This document shows, piece after piece, positions 6,091 through 60,241 of a stretch of DNA of 64,000 bases. Source of the stretch: a virus; IMG/VR virus record IMGVR_UViG_3300045988_147517, positions 55,186-119,185 of that record. One strand, written 5' to 3'. The position numbers and the translations under genes were made by a program. How positions within the stretch are numbered: the stretch's first letter is position 1; the number at the start of each line of letters is the position of its first letter. The notes below the pieces were generated by a model, which saw only the letters and a list, made by a program, of their open reading frames with translations, did not search any database and had not been told where the DNA came from.

Positions 6091-6165
6091 TGGTGCGGGG
6101 ACTGGGAATCGAACCCAGTTTTCAGGCGTATAAGACCCGCGCACTAACCGATGTACTATCCCCGT
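6091..6165 (-). tRNA. tRNA-Ile (anticodon UAU), CCA encoded
   Basis: Hand-folded cloverleaf: U8, A14, GG in the D loop, anticodon loop CUUAUAC, T arm CTGGG-TTCGATT-CCCAG, 3' ACCA. Position 1:72 is an A-C mismatch. Confidence 0.75.
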
Positions 6166-26637: not shown

Positions 26638-26661
26638 TAAAAAAAAAGGCGTTAAGCCTTT
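26638..26661 (-). terminator. rho-independent terminator of the helicase-like gene
   Basis: Stem AAAGGC/GCCTTT (26645-26650 / 26656-26661) plus a 9-nt T-run on the minus strand. Confidence 0.65.
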
Positions 26662-28001
26662 TTTCGAGATTTATTAAAGTAGCGGGATTTTTGGTAGGGC
26701 ACGTAGGCGATTTCTTCATCGTTGAGCCATTGAGTGAAAAGCGTTCGCATACGCAGGGATGGAATGTAGAGGTAAATTTCTTCATTATTTCTTATGGCGC
26801 TTCTCCATACCCATTGAACCATATCAGCCAGCGCGAATTTATCTTGGTCGACGGCAATATTTCTAATTGAAAAAAGTTGTTTAATAAAAGGGTTCATGTA
26901 GCGGTTTACCATGTAGGCGCAATGTGTGCGGTTTCCATATTCGTTTGTCGCTTTAGCATTGAGTGGAACAAAAGCCCTTCTACTAATGCGCGCTGGCTTC
27001 ACTTGCTTATTAAAAGATTTAAAGGTGGTATACATTCGTTGTTTTGGTGGCGCGCTTCTCAGAAAATTAAAGATACATCGGCTTACATCCTCAAGTTCCT
27101 CTGGATGTGAGGCATACCAATTATTACTAAGCGTACTGGAGAACTCCTGATTATTATTTGCTACATAAGGTCGACCAATTTCATTAAGGCTATCACTCTG
27201 GCAAATGTGGATAAGCGGTTTTACATTTTTCTTCCATTCTCTCTCATAGTCTTGGTTAATGGTTGGAACAAAACAATATTGTCCATTTTGGCGCTCTGTG
27301 TGATAATATTCATATGTTATATCATAGAAGCGATAATAGTATGCCTGCATTTGATGTTCAAACATGTAGGTAAGGATAAAAACGTCATTAAAAATATCCT
27401 CTTCGAAAACCTGTACGGGGAACGACCAAAATAAGGCACTATCATTAATATAGTAGAGCAGTCCATTATCGGCCAAATGTTTCATGTGTTGGTAGCGTGA
27501 TAAATCAGCCCATTCTTCTTTTGACCAATTCACTTGAAAATCTGGGTCGATAGATACATATCCTTTGCGAATAAAAGATGCCATATCCTTTATTGTATGA
27601 AGTTGCCTTTCTCTTTCGGTGAAGTTGGATTCGGAATACTTACATAAGTCATATTCATTAATAACGTTTATGACCTCGTCTAGAAATAAGATATAATTCC
27701 CACCTCTTAAGATATCGAGCAACTCTTTGTCTACATAAGAAAAGAGCGCATGTGTACAGACGATATTTTCTCCTTTTGCAAGTAGCGCTTTTAGGTGCCT
27801 TCCCTTGGTTCCAAATTCTTCCTCAGATGGTTGAACAAAATTCTTTGATTCACATTCTTTTATAACCCTATCACATTCGGTTAGGAATGGTGTTACAAAC
27901 ATAATATTGGTATCATTCCCTAACATATTAATATGATGAATGGCGGCACTTGTTTTGCCGCTACCCATCGGAGAGTCAACAACTTTAATTCTTCTTTTCA
28001 T
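26652..28001 (-). CDS. P-loop NTPase, SF2-helicase-like (candidate replication initiator or helicase)
   Basis: Walker A SPMGSGKTS, Walker B LFLDEV, motif-VI-like VWRSAIRN. Confidence 0.6.
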   Translation of the reverse strand: MKRRIKVVDSPMGSGKTSAAIHHINMLGNDTNIMFVTPFLTECDRVIKECESKNFVQPSEEEFGTKGRHLKALLAKGENIVCTHALFSYVDKELLDILRGGNYILFLDEVINVINEYDLCKYSESNFTERERQLHTIKDMASFIRKGYVSIDPDFQVNWSKEEWADLSRYQHMKHLADNGLLYYINDSALFWSFPVQVFEEDIFNDVFILTYMFEHQMQAYYYRFYDITYEYYHTERQNGQYCFVPTINQDYEREWKKNVKPLIHICQSDSLNEIGRPYVANNNQEFSSTLSNNWYASHPEELEDVSRCIFNFLRSAPPKQRMYTTFKSFNKQVKPARISRRAFVPLNAKATNEYGNRTHCAYMVNRYMNPFIKQLFSIRNIAVDQDKFALADMVQWVWRSAIRNNEEIYLYIPSLRMRTLFTQWLNDEEIAYVPYQKSRYFNKSRKKA

Positions 28002-28086: not shown

Positions 28087-28115
28087 TTGACATTTAATTA
28101 AATCTGTGCTATAAT
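28087..28115 (+). promoter_or_regulatory. sigma-A type promoter opening the rightward arm (divergent from 28036-28064)
   Basis: TTGACA at 28087-28092; 17-nt spacer; TGcTATAAT ending at 28115. Confidence 0.75.
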
Positions 28116-28744: not shown

Positions 28745-30691
28745 ATGAAGAATCGACAATTTTATATAGTAAAACTAAATAGTTCTGATTTAAAGTATTT
28801 CAAATATACTTTAGAGGGGGATTTTGATATTTTTAAAAAGCGCGACCAGATAGCCGCGGTGGCAGATAGTCAGACATTAAGGTTGATTAGAGAACTTACA
28901 AATAAAGATGTAGACTTGGAAGAGATTGAGAAGTTATACAAAAAAAGAGATTGGCTCAAAAAACAGGAGAGCACACAGGCCGCTTCAAATGAAATTGCTT
29001 TTTTGCAACGTAAGATTAATAACGCTATGTTTATTCCAGAATATGTCACAGTCACCATGAGTGGAAATAAACAATATGAGTATTTGTTCGAAAAAGGATT
29101 TGAGCTTATTATAGATGGTAGGCGCATTCATTATAAGCGATTGTCATGTTCGGCAGGGCAGGCTCGTGTTTCTACTGTTGTATTCTGTGATAGTAATATT
29201 ATTGATGAATTGGAGCGTCGATTAAACAACGGACGTGATATGAACTTTAAGATAGCGCCATCTAAATTCAATGCATACTTTGGATTATATACTTCCGCAA
29301 CTAAAGTAGTTAGCGAGCCTAACTTTTGTGTTGTGCCAGACTATGAAAATAATTTGGATGTAGAGGTAAATTATGTAACTGAAACGGATTATGATTCGGA
29401 CGATTTAATTGATACGCGAACCGTCAACTTAGGGTTTAACCGAACTGATGGGATGGGGCTAATAAATTATGAACGCGCCTCTAAATGGGCAGAAGAGTTA
29501 GGGCTAGATTATGTTCCGGCCCAATTTTGCATACGACAATCATTTATTAAGGGAATGTTGTGCACCTTTCCCATTCAAGAGTTTTGTGAGCTTGTTAATT
29601 ATGGTAATTATATCACAAAAGATATTTATGGCGCTGAAATAGATTTGAGGGACTATGATGTTATTTTAACGGAGAGCCAATTTAAATTGTGGGGTGCTTA
29701 TCCAAATCTTGATTATTACAAAGAATGTTGCCATAAAAATAATCTTAAATGGGGTGTAGCTATTTATACCCCTAAGCATGATAAAGATATTATCAAGATG
29801 AACTATCAATTTCTACAAACATTAGATTTATCAGACGAAGATATTGAAAATTTATGCTCAATGTTTGTTAATTGGATTCAGGGTGTAACTTGTGACAACT
29901 TAGGATACACGCTCCTCTATTTAATTGGAGAGGGTAAAACTGAAGAAGAAGTTCGGGCCTACATGCGTAGCCCGGATAACTATTGGATTAAATCTTTAAT
30001 TATGGAGCCGGAGTTAATTAAAGATAGGTATATCAAACAGAAGATATATCGCCTAATTAAAAAGCGCATTCAAGACGGTTGCCTAGGAGAGATTATTTTA
30101 AATGGCAACTTTCAGGTACTCGTAAGCGACCCATTTGGATTTATGCAACATGTATGCGGGTTAGAGCCAACTGGGTTACTTGGCGCTGATGAGTATTACT
30201 CTAACTATTGGAATGAGCGGGATGTAAAAGTGGTGGATGGTATGCGTTCCCCCTTGACATATCGCTCCGAACATGTTAAAATGAAGTTAGTGAGAAACAG
30301 CCGTATAGATTATTGGTATCGTTATATGTATACGGGCGTTGTTCTTAATTACCATGGACACGATGTAATGTGTTTTGGTGGCGCGGATTTTGATTATGAT
30401 ATTTTAGCCACTACTGATTGTCCAGAGGTGGTTAATGGTATATATCCAAATGAGTTACCTGTCTATTATGAGCCACCCAAACCAGCGAAGATAGTGCCTA
30501 CAAAAGAGGATTTGTTTAAATCAGACACATTCAGTTTTGGTTCTATCATTGGTAGCATTACAAATAAAGGTTCTAGCGGATATGCATTACTTTCCGACAT
30601 TGAATATATGTATGGGAAGAATAGTATAGAGTATGTTACTACGCTAAATAGATTAAAAATGTCTTGCAAGTTACAGAGCGCGCAAATTGAT
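28745..30691 (+). CDS. YonO/RdRP-like single-subunit RNA polymerase, exon 1
   Basis: VVDGMRSPLTYRSEH ... FGGADFDYDIL resembles the RnPxxHpgD ... GGDxDGD catalytic-barrel signature of QDE-1/RDR/YonO-type polymerases. The exon ends ...SAQID at a U, followed by an in-frame TAA at the start of the intron. Confidence 0.65.
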
Positions 30692-30965
30692 TAATGTTGG
30701 TCACTTCATAGGGAAACCTATGTCGAAACGTGGTGAACACTCAGAGAGTGGGTATACATATATTGTATGCTATCGGGGAAAGCTAAAGCCATAAGGTATG
30801 CCAATCCCGAGCCGAACACCTATTGGAGGTGGAGGTGTAACGACTATCCGCAAGGAGTAGCGCCATAGCGATATGGTGGCGAAGTGCCACGCCCCTAACG
30901 TAAAGCCGAGGGTGAAGATATAGTCTAGTCCCCTAACAAATATCGGGAAACCGAGGGTATGAACG
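30692..30965 (+). mobile_element. group I intron (274 nt, no ORF)
   Basis: Contains the canonical core GAAGATATAGTC and AACGACTATCCG; ends in G. Splicing joins ...SAQID to KAKIGREVKG... in frame. Confidence 0.75.
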
Positions 30966-31799
30966 AAAGCGAAAATAGGAAGAGAAGTAAAAGGAATTCC
31001 TAAAATATGGGTCAAACGCCAGAAAATAGAAGATGACGACGATGAACAAACGATTAAATATAAGGAGCGGATGAATTATTTATGTCTAGACAGGCATCCT
31101 TATTTTTTTATATATCGTTATGCTGATACCAGAAAGAAATATCGCAAGCACATTGACACTTATCAACATTGGTGCAAGACTTCATTTAGATTGTCTCTAG
31201 AGGAATTATTTAAGGTAGAAAATAAGACACAGCAACAAAAGGATTTTTTAGCTGGATATTTCCGTTATATGCCTGTTATTGATAGCAATAGTACGATGAA
31301 TCGTATTTGCCATTATATTGAAGGGTTGAATATGAATGTACGTAGCCACCTTAAAGTAAAAGAAGGGCACGACATGCATAAATTATTTATGCCTGATAAT
31401 ATTGAATGGAATGAAGAGCGCTACAATAATGTGGTAGAAGCCTATAAGCGTTATTGCAAGGAGTGCACAAAAATGAATTCTCTTGGCGCTTCTAATTTTG
31501 ATTTTGAGACAACGAAGGATTATGATTTTTACGCTTCTATGTTTATAGGAATGTTGTATTCCTATGTCAATGAGGTATGCAGTAATGTGTACGAAGCCAT
31601 TACATATTTGGCGCATTATATGTATGTGGAAAAAGATAGCGCCAATAAGGAAATGCTATGGCAAACATATGGGTATGAAATATATAGTATGATTAAGGAA
31701 AGAAATAGCGGTTACATTATGTTTCCACTAGAAGATGAAGATGGTGATATAGAGTATTTAAATAAAAGGTATTCTATGCAGGAGGTTTGTATTGATTGA
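30966..31799 (+). CDS. YonO/RdRP-like RNA polymerase, exon 2
   Basis: The frame is open from 30963. The junction restores QID-KAKIG, similar to the (A/S)xDxxKxG motif downstream of DxDGD in RdRP-type enzymes. Confidence 0.6.
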   Translation, partial: KAKIGREVKGIPKIWVKRQKIEDDDDEQTIKYKERMNYLCLDRHPYFFIYRYADTRKKYRKHIDTYQHWCKTSFRLSLEELFKVENKTQQQKDFLAGYFRYMPVIDSNSTMNRICHYIEGLNMNVRSHLKVKEGHDMHKLFMPDNIEWNEERYNNVVEAYKRYCKECTKMNSLGASNFDFETTKDYDFYASMFIGMLYSYVNEVCSNVYEAITYLAHYMYVEKDSANKEMLWQTYGYEIYSMIKERNSGYIMFPLEDEDGDIEYLNKRYSMQEVCID

Positions 31800-32610
31800 T
31801 AAATTTACATATAAAGAGACAGATTATGTGAACGCTTTATTACAAAATGGTTTTATGACACAATATGAGAACTATGAGATGTCTTTGTTGTGTAAATTTT
31901 GGAAAGAGACTGGCGTGACAAAAAAAGAGGCGCGCCAGAATCTTATTTATTTTTGTGAATTATATTCAGATAGTTATGATGAAATGCTATATCATGCACG
32001 CTTAGATAGAATTGTCAATGGAGTATATCGAAAAGAGAATAAGCTAATTCAAATAGATTATGTTCCTATATATAAACATGAATTTGAATACATTCAAAGT
32101 TGTGACCTTCCTCATCCTTATCAAAGATTGCTCTTTGCTTTCTTGGTATTAAAGAAAATCCATTCTGAAATATGGGTTATAAATGGCGGGGAGCGTAAGC
32201 TAAGTGGCCTGATTAATGGTGATAAAAAACAATTTAAAATAGTTAGCGAGATGGCGCATTTAAAAGGTGGAAAAAAGGAAGATATCTTTTATATGATATA
32301 CGATTTGGCTCAACAGGGAATGGTTACATCATTGGCGCTTGCTCAGGTTTATTTGAATTTTATAGACGAATTAAAAGAAAACGAATCAGAGGAGATTGTT
32401 CGCGTGTCAGATTTTGAGCATGTTTGGATGTATTATGATTATTTGAGTGGGTATAATCGGGCTGGAAGGGTCGTAATTTGTCAAGAATGTAATAGCCCCT
32501 ATCACGCAAAGAGTAACCGACAAAAGTATTGTAATGAATGTGCCGTTGAAAAACAGAGAGAAAGAGATTTGGAATACAGAAGAAGGGTTAGAAGTTCTAG
32601 TGAATACTAG
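31792..32610 (+). CDS. hypothetical protein with C-terminal zinc ribbon
   Basis: 272-aa ORF (TTG start after GGAGG); CQECNSPYHAKSNRQKYCNECA. Confidence 0.6.
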   Translation: MIDKFTYKETDYVNALLQNGFMTQYENYEMSLLCKFWKETGVTKKEARQNLIYFCELYSDSYDEMLYHARLDRIVNGVYRKENKLIQIDYVPIYKHEFEYIQSCDLPHPYQRLLFAFLVLKKIHSEIWVINGGERKLSGLINGDKKQFKIVSEMAHLKGGKKEDIFYMIYDLAQQGMVTSLALAQVYLNFIDELKENESEEIVRVSDFEHVWMYYDYLSGYNRAGRVVICQECNSPYHAKSNRQKYCNECAVEKQRERDLEYRRRVRSSSEY

Positions 32611-32749: not shown

Positions 32750-32778
32750 TTGACATCAGTGTTAAGACATGCTATAAT
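32750..32778 (+). promoter_or_regulatory. sigma-A type promoter upstream of the tRNA pair
   Basis: TTGACA at 32750-32755; 17-nt spacer; TGcTATAAT ending at 32778. Confidence 0.75.
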
Positions 32779-32946: not shown

Positions 32947-33022
32947 TGGGGTATAGCCAAGTCGGTAAGGCACCAGACTTTGACTCTGGGATGCGTAGGT
33001 TCGAGTCCTTCTGCCCCAGCCA
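32947..33022 (+). tRNA. tRNA-Gln (anticodon UUG), CCA encoded
   Basis: Acceptor TGGGGTA/TGCCCCA, anticodon arm CCAGA-CTTTGAC-TCTGG, T loop TTCGAGT, 3' GCCA. Confidence 0.8.
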
Positions 33023-33196: not shown

Positions 33197-33270
33197 GCCA
33201 CTATAGCATAACGGTAGTGCGAATGATTTGTAATCATTTTATCGGGGTTCGACTCCTCGTAGTGGCTCCA
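33197..33270 (+). tRNA. tRNA-Thr (anticodon UGU), CCA encoded
   Basis: Acceptor GCCACTA/TAGTGGC, anticodon arm AATGA-TTTGTAA-TCATT, T loop TTCGACT, 3' TCCA. Confidence 0.8.
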
Positions 33271-33470: not shown

Positions 33471-35006
33471 ATGTTTATTGAAAATTTACGAAATACTTTA
33501 AATGATGAAAAACAACTGACAGAGAATGGCGCTTTAGGGTATAAGACCAGCGGGCATAAGCTTGTTGATTTAAACTTTAGAGCTTCTACACTTCGGTATG
33601 AAGAAGATGAAAAAATCAAAAGTGCGTTTCTAGACGCTTTTGCACAAGAGCCAGAAATGGCAGTTAAGTGGTTATTCTTTGCGAGAGATATTCGTGAGGG
33701 TATGGGAGAACGTAGAGTGTTTAGAGTTATCATTCAACACCTGTGTAATTCTTATCCCGACCAAATGTGTGAAATTTTGGAATACATTCCAGAGTATGGG
33801 AGATGGGACGATTTAATTTATATCATTAAGAGAAGAGTTCCTGATAAAATTTTCAACAAGGTAGTTGGTATCATTGTAAATCAATTACGTGAAGATATGG
33901 AAAATGCATTAAATGGCAAAAACATTTCGCTTCTTGCTAAATGGATGCCAAGTGAAAAGTCCCATAATAAAGAAGCGCGCAATGTAGCCTACAAGGCTAT
34001 GAGTTTTCTTGGATTAACTCCTAGGAATTATCGTAAGATGATTTCTGGATTAAGGAAAACTCTTGATGTGGTAGAGCGTAAAATGAGTGCAAATGAATGG
34101 TCGTTTATTAATTATTCATCCGTTCCTTCAAATGCGAATTTGAAATACAGGAATGCATTCAATAGACATGACCATGAAAGATATAATGACTTCTTAACGA
34201 AAGTATTGACAAAAGAAGCTAAAATGAATTCTTCAACATTGTATCCTCATGAAATTGTTAAAAAATATAGAAGTGACGATATGTGGGAGGTTAGTTATTT
34301 CCCCGAATTTGAACCTGATTTAGAGGCATTGTGGAAATCCTTACCACGAGACAACTCTCTTAAGGATACAATTGTTGTTAGTGATGGCAGTGGCAGTATG
34401 TATACTACTGCGTATGGCGTTCAACCAATTGATGTTGCACAAGCACTTGCTATTTATTTTTCAGAAACCTGTCAGGGAGAATTTAAGGATAAATATATCA
34501 CGTTCAGCCAAACACCACAGTTAGTAGATTTTGGTAAGGCAGAGAATTTATTAGATAAGTTAAAAATTATTGATAAATATAACGAGGTTGCTAATACAGA
34601 TATCGAAGCTGTGTTTGACTTAATCCTAAAAGTCGCTACAGATGCTCATATGGCGCAGGAGGAAATTCCTAAGAATATCCTAATCATTAGCGATATGGAG
34701 TTTGATAGCGCTACATCTGCTCCGTTTTTTAGTGATGAACCATCAAGAGTGAATAAAACGTTATTTGATAGTATCTCTGAAAAATATCATAATGCTGGAT
34801 ATGAAATGCCAAAATTAATTTTCTGGAATGTGTTATCGAGAACCAATACCATTCCATTAAAGGAAAATGATTTGGGGGTGGCGCTATTAAGCGGATATTC
34901 TCCGGTTATTGCAGATATGATTATGTCGGGTAGGTTAGACCCATATAGCATTTTAATTGAAAAATTAAATAGCGAAAGATATAAAGATATTAAATTTAAA
35001 TTATAA
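33471..35006 (+). CDS. DUF2828-like / von Willebrand A (vWA) domain protein
   Basis: N-terminal TENGALGYKTSG...FFARDIREGMGERRVF; MIDAS-type VVSDGSGSM in the C-terminal half. Confidence 0.6.
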   Translation: MFIENLRNTLNDEKQLTENGALGYKTSGHKLVDLNFRASTLRYEEDEKIKSAFLDAFAQEPEMAVKWLFFARDIREGMGERRVFRVIIQHLCNSYPDQMCEILEYIPEYGRWDDLIYIIKRRVPDKIFNKVVGIIVNQLREDMENALNGKNISLLAKWMPSEKSHNKEARNVAYKAMSFLGLTPRNYRKMISGLRKTLDVVERKMSANEWSFINYSSVPSNANLKYRNAFNRHDHERYNDFLTKVLTKEAKMNSSTLYPHEIVKKYRSDDMWEVSYFPEFEPDLEALWKSLPRDNSLKDTIVVSDGSGSMYTTAYGVQPIDVAQALAIYFSETCQGEFKDKYITFSQTPQLVDFGKAENLLDKLKIIDKYNEVANTDIEAVFDLILKVATDAHMAQEEIPKNILIISDMEFDSATSAPFFSDEPSRVNKTLFDSISEKYHNAGYEMPKLIFWNVLSRTNTIPLKENDLGVALLSGYSPVIADMIMSGRLDPYSILIEKLNSERYKDIKFKL

Positions 35007-35027: not shown

Positions 35028-35050
35028 AGCCCGCTTGGCGGGCTTTTATT
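35028..35050 (+). terminator. rho-independent terminator
   Basis: Stem AGCCCGC/GCGGGCT (35028-35034 / 35038-35044) plus TTTT. Confidence 0.75.
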
Positions 35051-35090
35051 ATACGAAAAATTATAGGAATTATAGAAGGAGTGTAAAGTT

Positions 35091-35372
35091 ATGACAAGAA
35101 ATGAACTGTATAGGAAAGTTAGTAAGGCAACAGGAGTCAAGCAAGACGACGTAAAGGAAATAGGCAACGCTATTTTTGACTTGATTAAGACAACTGTTTG
35201 CACAGGTGAAAAAGTTTCAATTTCGAAATTTGGAACTTTTAATCCAAAGGTATATAAACCACATACATTTTTTAATCCTCTAACTCAGGAATATAGCAAT
35301 ATCTCGGCCCGCGCTGTTCCTAAGTTCTATCCATCACAAGACTTTAGAGAAGGTTGCAAGTCCGATGGCTAA
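35091..35372 (+). CDS. HU/IHF-family DNA-binding protein
   Basis: MTRNELYRKVSKATGV...KFGTFNPKVYKPHTFFNPLT...ARAVPKF is the typical HU fold pattern. Confidence 0.8.
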   Translation: MTRNELYRKVSKATGVKQDDVKEIGNAIFDLIKTTVCTGEKVSISKFGTFNPKVYKPHTFFNPLTQEYSNISARAVPKFYPSQDFREGCKSDG

Positions 35373-35577
35373 GTATGGAATCACAAAAAGTGTTGGCCTA
35401 AAGATTGTAGGTATGCTTGATATTCGAATGGAAGAAGAGCGAGTATATGTAGAAATTGAAGGGCAGACACATTCACTGGCGCTTTTATTAGAAGAATATG
35501 ACGGGCAGGACGTAACAATTACTACTGGTATGGATGTAATGCCAGAAGGATTGGTGCCAGAAGAGGATGAGGAATGA
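35365..35577 (+). CDS. small hypothetical protein
   Basis: 70-aa ORF overlapping both neighbours. Confidence 0.5.
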   Translation: MAKYGITKSVGLKIVGMLDIRMEEERVYVEIEGQTHSLALLLEEYDGQDVTITTGMDVMPEGLVPEEDEE

Positions 35578-36794
35578 ACTTAGAGAGATTGAAAGACGAG
35601 ACTAATTATGAATATCATAAGCGCTTAGTTTATGGAAAACTAGTCGACAAAACATTAGATGCGGACTATACAGAAATAGCGCCATATCTATATGGTAGGG
35701 AATATGCCCCTGATGTAGCAAGGCGTATGATGTATGGTAGCAGGGCAACTTTAGATATATTAGAATCTGAGGTTGAAAGTTTATTAGATACAGATGAAGA
35801 CGATTACATATCGTCTATCGAATATAAAAAAGTAGAATTACAAAAAGAGCGTATTAAGCTACAGACAGAAAAACAAGAATATAATAAGTGGGTACGCGAA
35901 GATGCCCGAGAAGAACAATTTTTAGAAAAAATTATAGAAGCAATGAAAGAATGTAGCCCCCCCCGCAAGGCTAATGTATTAGTTAGCGAGGGTAATTTAG
36001 CGCATCATAAAGAAGGTGTGCTATGTTTTGCTGATTGCCATTATGGAAAAGAGTTTGTTATTTATGGGCTTGAGGGCGAAATCCTCAATCAATATAGCCC
36101 AGAAACATTTTTCTTAAGAATGGATATGCTTTTGACAGAAACTATCAAAAGAGGACACGAAAATAATCTGAACAAAATCAAAGTATTATTTTTGGGTGAC
36201 GCTCTTGATGGTTTCCTTAGACACTCACAACTTAAAACGTTAAGGGAGGGTGTTGTTGATAGCGCAATTAGCTATGGTCGTTACATGTCAGATTGGTTAT
36301 ACAAACTATCACAAGAATTTTTTGTAGAATATTATCAAGTATGTGGTAATCATGGAGAATTACGTCTCTTAGATGGTCGTAAAGAAGAACATCTTGACGA
36401 TAATATAGAAAAGATTACTCTTGAAATTATACGTGCTTATAATATTAATAATCAAAATTTAAAGATAGTAGAGAACAAATCGGGTAATATATATACAAAC
36501 ATTTGCGGATATAATGTTTTAGGTATCCATGGAGAGTTCAAAGACTCTAAAAATGCTATGAGAGATTATATTGCCGCATATGATAAGGATATTGATTATT
36601 TGATTTGCGGTCATAAACATCATTCTTCTTTAGTAAATTGTGGATATCGAAAGTATGTTATCGGCATAGGAAGTATCGTTGGGATAGACGATTATAGTAT
36701 GAAGATACTAAAGACATCCGAAGCAAGTGCGAACTTTTTAATATTTGAAGAAGGAAAAGGAAAGACAATTGACTACTCTATTATCTTGAATTAA
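35574..36794 (+). CDS. calcineurin-like metallophosphoesterase
   Basis: FLGDALDG, GNHGE, GIHGE and GHKHH motifs. Confidence 0.7.
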   Translation: MNLERLKDETNYEYHKRLVYGKLVDKTLDADYTEIAPYLYGREYAPDVARRMMYGSRATLDILESEVESLLDTDEDDYISSIEYKKVELQKERIKLQTEKQEYNKWVREDAREEQFLEKIIEAMKECSPPRKANVLVSEGNLAHHKEGVLCFADCHYGKEFVIYGLEGEILNQYSPETFFLRMDMLLTETIKRGHENNLNKIKVLFLGDALDGFLRHSQLKTLREGVVDSAISYGRYMSDWLYKLSQEFFVEYYQVCGNHGELRLLDGRKEEHLDDNIEKITLEIIRAYNINNQNLKIVENKSGNIYTNICGYNVLGIHGEFKDSKNAMRDYIAAYDKDIDYLICGHKHHSSLVNCGYRKYVIGIGSIVGIDDYSMKILKTSEASANFLIFEEGKGKTIDYSIILN

Positions 36795-54110: not shown

Positions 54111-55187
54111 ATGGCTGGAAGATATGTTGGAGAAGCGTTAGTATCTGTTGCTGATGTAAAAATGCTGGATACAAAAACCGGAGTTGAAATCGGTGAAGCT
54201 ATTGCTCTGACAAGTTCAGGTATTGAATCGACTACTCAAAATGTTGAAGTTAGTGGTGGTTTCTTAAACTCCCTGCTTTTCGATATTCGTTTTGGTAGAC
54301 GTGTAAACCTGACTCTTGAAAGTGCAACATTTAAAATGGAATACTTGGCGTTTCAAACAGGTACAGTTATCAGCAGAGCAGTACGTAATGTATATGAATT
54401 TAATGATTGTCAAACAGCGGCAACTGAAACACTTACATTAAAACATACTCCTACTGATAAAGTACACGTTGTTTATGATGATGGTAACGTAGAAGATTTA
54501 AGCGCCACTGCTAATACTATTACTATTCCTACAAAATATGTAGGAACTCAGGTAATGGCAAGTTACTACTATGGTGGTGAATTTGAAAACATCACCGTTG
54601 ATGCAACCACCGAACCTATGACTGTTACACTTTTAATGAATATTAGAAGTAGAAAACAAAATGGTACTACAGGGACTTATCAAGTTTCTATTCCATTATT
54701 TAAGTTTGATGGTAACTTTAACTTAACATTTACATCAGACGGTGTTTCTGCTATGTCTATTGCTGGTAGTTCTCTTGCTTATACTCAGGATTGTGGTAAG
54801 ATGAAATATTGCGACTGGACATATATTCCTGATGACCCAGATACTTATGTACCAGCAGAAATTATTGCTGTACCAAGCAAGTATTCACTCTCAGTTGGAC
54901 AGAAAGTTACCCCATACGTTGTTGGTGTACGTAATCCACCTTACGCAAATGTTACATTGACTGAAAATCTAACTTTTGCTACTGACCATAGTGAAATTGC
55001 AGATGTATCTACTCCGGGTGGTGTTATTACAGCGGTTGCTCCGGGCAACGCAGTTATCACTGTAACCTATACACCTCCTGTTGCAGGAGAAGACCCAAGA
55101 ATTACTACAATTGCAGTTACTGTTGCTGGCGCTTCAAGTGCTAGTGAAGTTGGCTTAGCAAAAGTAGGAGAAGCGAAAGTTAAATAA
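54111..55187 (+). CDS. major tail (tube) protein with C-terminal Ig-like (Big_2-type) domain
   Basis: Position; C-terminal ...LSVGQKVTPYVVG...ADVSTPGGVITAVAPGNAVITVTY is a typical Big_2 pattern. Confidence 0.55.
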   Translation: MAGRYVGEALVSVADVKMLDTKTGVEIGEAIALTSSGIESTTQNVEVSGGFLNSLLFDIRFGRRVNLTLESATFKMEYLAFQTGTVISRAVRNVYEFNDCQTAATETLTLKHTPTDKVHVVYDDGNVEDLSATANTITIPTKYVGTQVMASYYYGGEFENITVDATTEPMTVTLLMNIRSRKQNGTTGTYQVSIPLFKFDGNFNLTFTSDGVSAMSIAGSSLAYTQDCGKMKYCDWTYIPDDPDTYVPAEIIAVPSKYSLSVGQKVTPYVVGVRNPPYANVTLTENLTFATDHSEIADVSTPGGVITAVAPGNAVITVTYTPPVAGEDPRITTIAVTVAGASSASEVGLAKVGEAKVK

Positions 55188-58118: not shown

Positions 58119-59156
58119 ATGTCAGGAAGAAAAACAGTTTATAATAATATTGTAACAAATGAAGATTGGGAAGAAGTTTGTGAACATAATAAAGATTTGG
58201 TAGAAGAATTTAACCAATATAATAAAAGTGTTGACCGTTCTCCACAAACTATCAAGCAATATAATTATCAGCTTAGGATATTTTTTATTTGGAACTTAAA
58301 GTATAACAAAAATAAACCTTTCTATAAAGTTAAAAAAAGAGATTTCATAAAATATTTTGGATGGGTAAGTGAAGAACTTGGCGCTAGTCCAAATAGGATT
58401 GCATCTTTAAGGGCAGTTTTAAGTAGCCTGTCCAATTATATTGAACGGTTTTTAGACGAAGAAGATGAATATGAAAGTTTTAGAAATGTTGTCAAAATTA
58501 TAGAAGCCCCAACAAAAATAGCGGTTAGAAAGAAAAGTGTTTTTTCTGAGGAAGAAATAAATGATTTATTGAACAATCTTGTCAAGAATGAAAAGTATCA
58601 AATTGCCTGTTGCCTTGCGTTGGCAGTTGCTAGTGGAAGTAGAAAAAGCGAACTCATTCAGTTTAAGTGTGATTGGTTTAATGAAGATAATATTGTATTA
58701 GGATGTATGTACAAAACACCTGAAACGATTAGGACAAAGGGCCGAGGAAAAATGGGGAAACCGTTAGAAAAGTACACTTTTGTTAAACAGTTTAAACCTT
58801 ATTATGATATGTGGATGATGGAGCGCCAAAAACTCGGTATAGAGAGTGAATGGCTTTTTGTACGGCTTGTAAATGGAGATTGGGTTCAGGCGATAGATGA
58901 TACGTTATCTTCATGGGCTGATACAATCAATCGTTATACAGAAAAAGATTTTTACTTTCATGCTAACCGTCATTTATGGACAACCAATCTTAAACGTGCT
59001 GGTATTCCATCAGATGTGATAAAAGAATTGCAAGGATGGGAGAGCGAAGAAATGGTCAGTGTTTATTCTGACCTAGACGTTTCTGAAACGTTAAAAAAAT
59101 ATTTTGATGAGAATGGGATAAAGAAAATAAATCAAACAAATCTGACCGACTTATAG
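58119..59156 (+). CDS. second tyrosine recombinase
   Basis: SGSRKSEL (Arg), HANRHLWTT (HxxR), LQGWESEEMVSVYSD (Trp...Tyr). Confidence 0.75.
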   Translation: MSGRKTVYNNIVTNEDWEEVCEHNKDLVEEFNQYNKSVDRSPQTIKQYNYQLRIFFIWNLKYNKNKPFYKVKKRDFIKYFGWVSEELGASPNRIASLRAVLSSLSNYIERFLDEEDEYESFRNVVKIIEAPTKIAVRKKSVFSEEEINDLLNNLVKNEKYQIACCLALAVASGSRKSELIQFKCDWFNEDNIVLGCMYKTPETIRTKGRGKMGKPLEKYTFVKQFKPYYDMWMMERQKLGIESEWLFVRLVNGDWVQAIDDTLSSWADTINRYTEKDFYFHANRHLWTTNLKRAGIPSDVIKELQGWESEEMVSVYSDLDVSETLKKYFDENGIKKINQTNLTDL

Positions 59157-59179: not shown

Positions 59180-59938
59180 ATGGCTATAAGTAGAGAGTAT
59201 AAGGTTAAGATAAAGGCTACTGTTGACCCTAGTGAAATTTCTAAACAAATAGAGGCCTTAAGTAAAAATAGTAAAATAAAATTTGATACTGGCGGTATTG
59301 ATGCGGTTGGTAAAAGTGTTGGAAATACGAGCAAACAAGTTAAAGGATTAGGAACTCTAGTAGATGGAGTGTTTGGAAAATTTAACTTATGGTATGGAAT
59401 TGCTCAACTTTCTCACCAAATCTATAGTGCAATTGGAGACGTTGTAACCAATACGATAAAACTAGATACTGCAATGACAGGTTTAGCAAAAGTAAGCGAT
59501 ATGTCAAAACAGGATTTAACAGCGTTTGCTAAATCTGCTGGCGAAGCAGGGGTTGAAATAGGAAAAACAACAACTCAGATGATTGACGCGGCTACAGTGT
59601 TTGCACAGGCTGGATGGAGTGACCCGGGCGAATTGCAACAACTCGCCACTATGGCTGGTATGTTTACTAATATCGCAGACACTCAGACGAGTACGGCAGA
59701 ATCCGCAGAATTTTTAATTGCTACTATGAAGGCATTTAATTTGACAGCCGATGACACAGAGCATATTATTGATGCGGTTAATGAAGTATCAAATAAATAC
59801 GCAGTAAGTTCGGGTGACCTTGCATCATCTGTTGGTAGAGTTGCTTCTACACTTGCTATTTCTGGTACAACGCTAGAACAGACCTTAGGGTTAATGACCG
59901 GGGCGACAGAGATTGTCAGAAATCCGGGAAAAGTGGCT
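59180..59938 (+). CDS. tail tape measure protein, exon 1
   Basis: Typical TMP N-terminal region; ends ...RNPGKVA, followed by an in-frame TAA at the start of the intron. Confidence 0.7.
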
Positions 59939-60241
59939 TAATTTTAGGTCGGATATATGGTAACATATATTCAAAAACACTCTAATTGACGGGAAACCCC
60001 TTAGAGCTTTATCAACCAACCTATGATGGTGACATACATAGGGGCTTGACGTAATGGTTAAGGTATGGTAAAATAGATAAAGATTGGGCAATCCGCAACC
60101 AAGCATCTCAATGAGATGAAGGCTCAACGACTATCCGAGAGGAGTACATATCAAGTGATGTGGAAATGGGTGTCCCCTCACATGAGGGTGAAGATATAGT
60201 CTAGTCCCCTAACAAATATCGGGAAACCGAGGGTAGAAACG
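59939..60241 (+). mobile_element. group I intron (303 nt, no ORF), paralogue of 30692-30965
   Basis: A 52-nt block at 60184-60235 is identical to 30908-30959 (GAGGGTGAAGATATAGTCTAGTCCCCTAACAAATATCGGGAAACCGAGGGTA). It shares AACGACTATCCG, the 5' TAAT start and the 3' AACG end. Confidence 0.75.

Follow-up and report, generated by a model that had tools for sequence, protein, structure and literature searches.

A phage RNA polymerase gene whose reading frame is interrupted raises two questions: whether the interruption is an intron that leaves a single enzyme intact, and what that enzyme would do. Such a gene lies at positions 28745 to 31799 of the 64,000-nucleotide (nt) stretch of viral DNA considered here (positions 55,186 to 119,185 of IMG/VR record IMGVR_UViG_3300045988_147517), the whole of which is referred to as the window. 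Its reference enzyme is YonO of phage SPbeta, the only characterised bacterial or phage member of the family, a strictly DNA-dependent RNA polymerase needed for the SPbeta late genes (PMC5467207). No relatives of cellular RNA polymerases smaller than the YonO-type enzymes are known, and the biochemistry of this type comes from SPbeta YonO alone (PMC5467207). The window gene is a YonO-type RNA polymerase gene with a group I intron within a conserved motif, well supported as such yet rather ordinary within a large family of prophage enzymes. The best explanation for the locus as a whole, held with high confidence, is an SPbeta-like phage or prophage of a low-GC Firmicute carrying a YonO-family two-barrel (QDE-1/RDR-fold) RNA polymerase gene, the intron of which has no open reading frame (ORF).

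Family, fold and catalytic residues of the polymerase

The spliced protein of 926 amino acids (aa) matched the Pfam family RdRP (PF05183) over residues 128-584 with 32.7 bits against a cut-off of 23.8 (E 4.3e-8). PHROG 8308 covered residues 2-922 in one stretch (E 7e-151). Two further PHROGs gave partial matches only, to the N-terminal part (5-550) or the C-terminal part (586-920); as each corresponds to one half only, they were a first hint that split versions of the polymerase are common. BLASTP aligned residues 122-607 with SPbeta YonO (E 6e-29), and hhalign with a profile of 73 homologues extended the match to 659 columns (query residues 109-903, YonO 122-794; E 6e-25, probability 99.6%). 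YonO differs in length (839 aa), in its approximately 26% identity and in its uninterrupted reference gene.

Among phage genomes, tblastn identified Bacillus phage BUCT082 (Spbetavirus; UAW07825.1, 924 aa, 51% identity over the full length), SPbeta YonO itself and relatives in Clostridium, Enterocloster, Thomasclavelia, Psychrobacillus and Bacillus phages. The BUCT082 protein and prophage proteins of 920-945 aa from Bacillus, Paenibacillus, Metabacillus, Heyndrickxia and Lachnospiraceae share 45-81% full-length identity with the window protein, and have in common with it a loop of the type G[AS]D[FVWY]D[YFLM]D, the motif SAQIDKAKIG, a downstream zinc-ribbon ORF and an HU gene. Unlike the window gene they have no intron, and databases name them ‘hypothetical protein’ or ‘RNA-dependent RNA polymerase’. 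At 50% identity the family divides into 1081 clusters, of which 333 have E ≤ 1e-30, and the window locus falls in a large sister clade of YonO. No near-identical phage was found by megablast against the phage genome collection. A search of genome contigs gave only relatives of 52% identity or less; one of its two patterns spans the splice site, which biases it against intron-bearing alleles.

The relationship to eukaryotic polymerases required fold comparison. A phmmer search of PDB sequences with the single protein gave no match, and the family profile gave only a marginal one to RDR2 (E 0.15). The AlphaFold2 model of the spliced protein (predicted local distance difference test, pLDDT, 89.1; predicted template modelling score 0.85) matched RDR2 (1.6e-17), QDE-1 (~1e-13 to 5e-11) and gp66 of the crAss-like phage phi14:2 (8e-4) in a Foldseek search of the PDB, while matches to bacterial beta-prime subunits ranked after gp66 and were insignificant. 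In BFVD, phage ‘RdRP’ proteins (8e-44) and gp99 of 0305phi8-36 were found. The predicted structure has the two double-psi beta-barrels in one chain that define the QDE-1/RDR fold. QDE-1 and RDR2 (2J7N, 7W82, 7ROZ) were the best structural matches, with approximately 900 aligned columns, E-values of 1e-17 to 1e-11, template modelling (TM) scores of 0.4-0.5 and a barrel 1 that is similar even at sequence level; they differ in their 11-15% identity, their canonical DxDGD loop, and their eukaryotic origin and role in RNA silencing. The gp66 protein (6VR4) is likewise a two-barrel, single-chain phage RNA polymerase, but the match was far weaker (E 8e-4, TM 0.24), and gp66 is a virion-packaged protein of 2180 residues that transcribes early genes. 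The initial annotation, made from the sequence alone, had proposed a two-barrel polymerase and named YonO, QDE-1 and gp66 for comparison; similarity to all three, and to RDR2, was found.

Two-barrel polymerases share an Arg, a Pro and three Asp in the beta-prime-like barrel, and an Asp and two basic residues in the beta-like barrel (PMC2919709). All of these are present here as R501, P503, D548, D550, D552, D235, R264 and K269, are invariant in the 73 homologues and have counterparts in YonO and RDR2; the first basic residue of the beta-like barrel is an Arg, as in those two enzymes. The beta-like barrel motif is NRTDGMG...CIRQSFIKGM (aa 232-271; 29438..29557, plus strand), of which D235, G236, R264, K269 and G270 are invariant in the homologue alignment. 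The profile aligned this segment to RDR2 ‘fsDGiGkis..fqiRyggyKG’ and to YonO ‘HTDGCG..VRLPWVKG’. The R-x-P motif of the beta-prime-like barrel, VVDGMRSPLTYRSEH (aa 496-510; 30230..30274, plus strand), has M500, R501, P503, E509 and H510 invariant, and BLASTP placed its MRSPLTYRSEH opposite LRSPHLFREH of YonO. The R-x-P, D-x-D-x-D, DG.G / R....KG and xIDxAK motifs are therefore all shared with YonO within the homologous region.

The metal-binding loop D548-F-D550-Y-D552 (30386..30400, plus strand) lies within FGGADFDYDIL (aa 544-554, nt 30374-30406) and was aligned by BLASTP column for column on YonO DNDGD, as had been proposed for the catalytic motifs. Its three Asp are invariant. The canonical Gly at position 4 (residue 551) is not present; in the 120 closest database proteins this position was Y, F, L or M and never G, the loop following the pattern G[AS]D[FVWYT]D[YFLM]D. 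Across 30 prophage loci (Bacillaceae, Paenibacillaceae, Lachnospiraceae and others) it was Y, M, F, L or V, with a single G in locus L032. Among the 150 best cluster representatives, which reach down to approximately 30% identity, G was found in 75 of the 120 with coverage, and DxDGD is the loop of YonO, Perkons, PMBT24, TR-TP1, 0305phi8-36, c-st and MT835481. On these alignments DFDYD is a real departure from the canonical loop, at a tolerated variable position in one large clade of ~920-aa proteins. The change from Gly to Tyr had been likened to the DFDID loop of crAss-like phages. That precedent holds, as position 4 is I or V in all crAss-like phages, where the loop makes a left-handed turn and the enzyme is active (10.1101/2020.03.07.982082). 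The change is, however, no singularity of the window gene, being Y, F, M or L throughout the clade and occasionally G, and it differs from gp66 in being aromatic or Met. The crAss-like phages are thus not the only polymerase lineage in which the supposedly invariant glycine of the Mg loop can be replaced; in this second lineage Tyr, Phe, Met or Leu takes its place.

The bulky Tyr could leave the polymerase impaired or conditionally active, with a need for an activating step or partner, or could confine it to a non-catalytic role in nucleic-acid binding. Retention of Gly in YonO and the other DxDGD proteins named above would fit with this, and the crystal conformation of gp66, with its non-glycine position 4, was unable to bind Mg (10.1101/2020.03.07.982082); because of this link, activity of a DFDYD loop is not to be taken for granted. 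Against impairment, gp66 with DFDID is an active RNA polymerase, position 4 varies freely within one clade (Y/F/M/L/V, and G in L032) as for a tolerated position, and retained catalysis is favoured by the three Asp and the other catalytic residues, none of which varies across hundreds of clade members. An impaired enzyme was therefore considered very unlikely.

Slightly less credence still was given to an RNA-dependent RNA polymerase that copies RNA, for example antisense or small RNAs, and does not transcribe phage late genes from DNA. In its favour are the best Pfam match, to ‘RdRP’, the name ‘RNA-dependent RNA polymerase’ given to related phage proteins, and the nearest solved folds, RDR2 and QDE-1, which are those of eukaryotic RNA-silencing polymerases. 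The database names, however, are inherited from the title of the Pfam family. YonO is strictly DNA-dependent and required for SPbeta late genes (PMC5467207), gp66 is also DNA-dependent (10.1101/2020.03.07.982082), and the window gene heads the structural block with the same neighbours as yonO. By analogy with these enzymes, the window protein would be a Mg-dependent, DNA-templated RNA polymerase.

The group I intron and its insertion sites

The first ORF of the gene (28745..30694, plus strand) encodes 649 aa and stops at a TAA at 30692-30694. Its coding part, exon 1 (28745..30691, codons 1-649), comprises the N-terminal domain, both double-psi beta-barrels and the onset of the helical region, ending in ...KLQSAQID. 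Exon 2 (30966..31799, plus strand, codons 650-926 and the stop) comprises the C-terminal helical domain and begins with KAKIGREVKGIP; translation from 30966 reads KAKIGREVKG... in frame, that is KAKIGREVKGIPKIW..., up to the stop at 31799. Removal of the 274 nt at 30692-30965 joins 28745-30691 to 30966-31799 and gives a single in-frame product of 926 aa. The uninterrupted BUCT082 homologue runs through the same point as ...KLQSAQIDKAKIGREVKGIP..., and the DNA of homologue P0001 (locus L007), which lacks the intron, reads ...CAAATTGAT|AAAGCGAAG across it. In these intron-less alleles (L007 and L008 at the DNA level, BUCT082 at the protein level) the reading frame is the one restored by precise removal, and because all are continuous across this point the predicted junction is exact. 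The motifs and positions given in the initial annotation were correct throughout, as was its restoration of ...SAQID-KAKIG... to a 926-aa product.

The junction falls within SAQID|KAKIG, a motif present in 105 of the 120 closest homologues. Exon 2 is homologous to BUCT082 residues 647-924 and YonO residues 626-794, and its K650, K652, G654, V657, K658, P661 and W664 are invariant in the 73 homologues. Neither an intein nor a frameshift accounts for the break, as the insert has in-frame stops, an RNA core and a length that is not a multiple of 3.

The insert (30692..30965, plus strand) has no ORF, opens with the in-frame TAA and ends in G30965. Owing to this TAA, unspliced RNA would yield only the 649-aa fragment. 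Rfam Intron_gpI (RF00028) matched 30692-30947 over the full model (positions 1-253) with 41.4 bits and an E-value of 4e-9 in a 701-nt search. The gathering threshold is 50 bits, and a scan of the whole window at that threshold did not report this intron, which was seen only in the local E-value scan. The last ~60 nt are nearly identical to those of a second group I intron in the window, which scored 65.1 bits, above the cut-off (59939-60241; reported by Rfam at 59929-60224). This second intron lies in a tape-measure or minor-tail gene with exon 1 at 59180-59938, also starts with an in-frame TAA, and upon removal of 303 nt gives ...PGKVA|NGLKTISLRLQG.

Comparison with a relative provided support for the core. 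At the same site, homologue P0007 (locus L006, 83% identity) carries an intron whose P6 loop contains an ORF for an HNH endonuclease. When the two introns were compared by RNAalifold, 10 pairs had changed on both sides and were kept, including pairs in P2, P2.1, the long-range P3 (CGUGGUG/..GCCACG in one, CACAGUG/..GCUGUG in the other) and P7.2; the count rests on two sequences and its statistics are limited. Pairs were counted on these two sequences because four divergent introns aligned too poorly by MAFFT in their 5' half. The P7 strands GACUAU (30842-30847) and AUAGUC (30920-30925) are invariant between the window and L006 introns. From the sequence, a P1 hairpin can be drawn between UUGAU of the exon plus UA of the intron and the guide sequence UGGUCA (30698-30703), in which T30691, the exon-end U, pairs with intron G9; the tape-measure intron and an intron in phage CB473P1 allow an equivalent P1 to be drawn.

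The only match by megablast against phage genomes was a 50-nt segment of the intron, found in Staphylococcus phages at an unannotated spot. This 3' segment, GAAGAUAUAGUCUAGUCCCCUAA..AAAUAUCGGGAAACCGAGGGUA, is 94% identical to the Staphylococcus phage sequences and is common to the introns of Goe11 yonO, MT835481 and the window's tape-measure gene. With other Firmicute phage group I introns (RF00028; Staphylococcus Twort-like phages and SPbeta-group genes) the window intron shares the P3-P8 core, P7.1/P7.2-type hairpins and insertion into a conserved coding motif. It differs from its same-site relatives, which carry an HNH ORF (L006), a GIY-YIG ORF (Goe11) or another ORF (CB473P1), in having no homing-endonuclease ORF. 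On this comparative evidence the insert is a group I intron with a covarying core, as first annotated; the full-model Rfam match, the 10 compensatory pairs and the intron-less alleles support the call, even with a score below the cut-off. Self-splicing in vivo would be expected of it.

The least probable of the alternatives is that the gene is truly split, the insert staying in the RNA and the two parts (649 aa and ~242 aa from an ATG at 31071) being made separately, either to assemble or as the remains of a decaying, non-functional pseudogene. Besides the low Rfam score, this would be compatible with the AAGGAG found 3 nt before the in-frame ATG 31071 of exon 2 (31056-31073), from which a 242-aa ORF could in principle be translated from unspliced RNA, and with the GenBank records of c-st and Goe11, in which the equivalent halves were given separate coding sequences (CDSs). 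It would leave unexplained why the stretch 5' of that ATG, 30966-31070, encodes residues that are invariant in the 73 homologues and identical in BUCT082. The group I core with its compensatory changes, the U.G at the 5' junction and the terminal G also speak against it, as does purifying conservation of both exons, with 81% full-length identity to P0001.

Interruption of this gene is not confined to the window. In the Enterocloster phage CB473P1 (L009 2027-3157) the break is at ELD|KLKG, the same codon boundary, with a 1131-nt insert containing a 250-aa ORF, whereas its relative PMBT24 has the polymerase gene in one piece. The SPbeta-type phage vB_BsuS-Goe11 (MT601272; L044 3992-5281) has its break between YonO residues 625 and 626 (TID|FAK), again the exact codon boundary of the window gene; the 1290-nt insert encodes a GIY-YIG protein and ends in ...AAAUAUCGGGAAACCGAGGGUAUCAAAG like the window's introns, and the record lists yonO_1, a hypothetical protein and yonO_2. 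In both phages the insert is a group I intron with an ORF for a homing endonuclease, and the public records give the gene as two or three CDSs. At a second site, group I-like inserts lie within the DxD|GD codons of c-st (L002 4651-4967) and of the metagenomic phage MT835481 (L004 2088-3035); the polymerase halves of c-st are separate CDSs in GenBank. Among the best 150 cluster representatives, 25 end at the catalytic loop, many right after ...GAD, and 6 end at the xID site; truncated ORFs cluster on their own, and both proportions therefore overstate the true intron occupancy. Rfam E-value scans did not detect the introns of c-st, MT835481, L006 and CB473P1, and gave only 18.9 bits for Goe11; the introns at these loci were recognised by shared core strings and exon junctions. 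A full-text literature search for YonO and intron returned nothing relevant, and a preprint on Goe11-type phages does not mention introns.

The two intron hot spots, at the DxDxD codons and at the xID|K motif, are real all the same, and they mark the most constrained DNA of the family. Because introns repeatedly hit these codons, many database entries for the family are truncated half-proteins annotated as separate genes. In c-st, a RAGATH-18 RNA match of 64 bits, above the cut-off, was also observed beside an insertion sequence (IS) element downstream of the split yonO homologue (L002 8944-9004).

The probable zinc-ribbon partner and the proposed route to late transcription

The polymerase gene is followed by ORF272 (31792..32610, plus strand; 272 aa), the start of which overlaps the polymerase stop by 8 nt in a translationally coupled arrangement. 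Its N-terminal part is helical, and its C-terminal part is a CxxC-x15-CxxC zinc ribbon with a basic tail. The ribbon matches the C-terminus of YonO, residues 797-835 (hhalign probability 87%, E 4e-6); in YonO it is fused to the polymerase, whereas here it is on a separate ORF. The ORF downstream of the BUCT082 polymerase is an ORF272 orthologue (E 6e-32). The polymerase C-terminus was located in 37 loci, and in every one an ORF of 209-344 aa began within a few bases of the polymerase stop, 28 of these ORFs having the ribbon; the gene is kept from Bacillaceae to Lachnospiraceae prophages. In one homologue, P0145 (1173 aa), the polymerase is fused to an ORF272-type protein (E 7e-17).

This linkage and fusion suggest that the ORF272 product and the polymerase are physical partners. 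With a conserved, coupled zinc-ribbon gene whose product forms one chain with the polymerase in P0145, the label ‘single-subunit’ in the initial annotation is accordingly doubtful, and the enzyme may comprise more than one subunit. A role for ORF272 in recognising DNA or promoters is a matter of speculation. No Pfam family was matched, and although the model was of good quality (pLDDT 87.5) its best Foldseek matches were winged-helix regulators at E 0.3-1; a sigma-like or winged-helix identity is unsupported by matches at that level. As there was no significant structural match, the role is drawn only from linkage and fusion.

Taken together, the locus suggests the following course of events. 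Host sigma-A RNA polymerase would transcribe the operon from a promoter-like site at 28087-28115. The intron would fold through P1, with the U.G pair at the splice site, and P7 (GACUAU/AUAGUC), and its self-excision would join codon D649 to codon K650. The 926-aa product would then unite the beta-like barrel (D235, R264, K269) with the beta-prime-like barrel (R501, P503, D548/D550/D552), and, from homology and the model, the united barrels would bind the catalytic Mg ions and polymerise nucleoside triphosphates on a DNA template. By analogy with YonO (PMC5467207), the polymerase would transcribe the downstream plus-strand block of late and structural genes, probably acting with the ORF272 product, whose zinc ribbon has its counterpart in the tail fused to the C-terminus of YonO.

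Several results weigh against the explanation as a whole. Besides the sub-threshold Rfam score and the gp66 conformation unable to bind Mg, these are the lack of a significant Foldseek match for ORF272, the origin of the closest relatives (81% identity) from human-gut metagenomes, and the outcome of a search for late promoters: the conserved TTTATTATAC..ATTATAGGAATTATAG upstream of the HU gene occurred only once in the window and was absent from the SPbeta locus, and no late promoter was found.

A more far-reaching proposal is tentative and rather doubtful: the ~920-aa clade could be a two-component phage transcription machine, in which a catalytic chain without the loop glycine works with a dissociable zinc-ribbon partner of 210-340 aa for DNA or promoter recognition, YonO retaining only the fused ribbon. 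If the clade does work in this way, ORF272 would offer a concrete means of working out how YonO-type polymerases locate their promoters; the conserved, sometimes fused partner is a candidate specificity factor. Separately, the change from early to late transcription could be controlled by splicing.

The enzyme family, its fold, the precedent for a non-glycine loop and group I introns in essential phage genes are already known, and intron-split yonO genes are already in GenBank (Goe11, c-st) under other labels, as separate CDSs. What is new is modest: the clade-wide variant loop, the recurrent introns at two catalytic motifs and the conserved, sometimes fused zinc-ribbon partner. Current understanding is not overturned; the annotation is refined and experiments are suggested.

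Gene neighbourhood and further features of the window

All genes from position 1 to 28001 of the window are on the minus strand and all from 28143 to 64000 on the plus strand. The intergenic region from which the two sets diverge, bordered on the minus strand by the gene 26652-28001, contains the sigma-A-type site mentioned above (28087..28115, plus strand), TTGACA-17-TATAAT with an extended TG, which matches the consensus at 12 of 12 positions and is promoter-like by this consensus match only. This site heads a rightward operon of three small ORFs, the polymerase gene and ORF272. Next in order are two tRNA genes, a gene for a DUF2828/DUF7788 protein, the HU, yonK-like and yonJ-like phosphoesterase genes, and the structural genes.

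The HU-family DNA-binding protein gene (35091..35372, plus strand; Pfam Bac_DNA_binding, E 8.5e-22), the counterpart of yonN, begins 3.3 kb past the polymerase stop, much as first annotated, and the synteny extends to a yonK-like gene directly after it (35365-35577, plus strand) and a yonJ-like gene (35574-36794, plus strand). The order of divergent yonV-like gene, small ORFs, polymerase, HU, yonK and yonJ at the head of the late structural cluster is that of the SPbeta module, and the gene order agrees with SPbeta, BUCT082 and metagenomic relatives (L007). Compared with SPbeta, the segment between the polymerase and HU genes contains as extras ORF272, the two tRNA genes and the DUF2828/DUF7788 gene. 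The last of these (33471-35006) encodes 511 aa, with matches to DUF2828 and DUF7788 and a weak one to vWA; L007 and L008 have it too, whereas SPbeta and BUCT082 lack it at that position. By analogy with YonO, the window enzyme would be expected to transcribe the late block.

Upstream of the HU-yonK-yonJ genes, a terminator-like hairpin (35028-35044) immediately precedes a segment at 35045-35090, TTTATTATACGAAAAATTATAGGAATTATAGAAGGAG, which is nearly identical in the 81%-related L007 and L008 and could be a late promoter. A second perfect sigma-A-type promoter-like site (32750-32778) lies upstream of the genes for tRNA-Gln(TTG) and tRNA-Thr(TGT) (32947-33022 and 33197-33270), all in the interval from ORF272 to the DUF2828 gene. 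On the minus strand, at 6091-6165, there is also a gene for tRNA-Ile(TAT). Within the structural block, immediately 5' of the tape-measure gene, is a gene for a tyrosine recombinase (58119-59156; Phage_integrase, E 5e-18).

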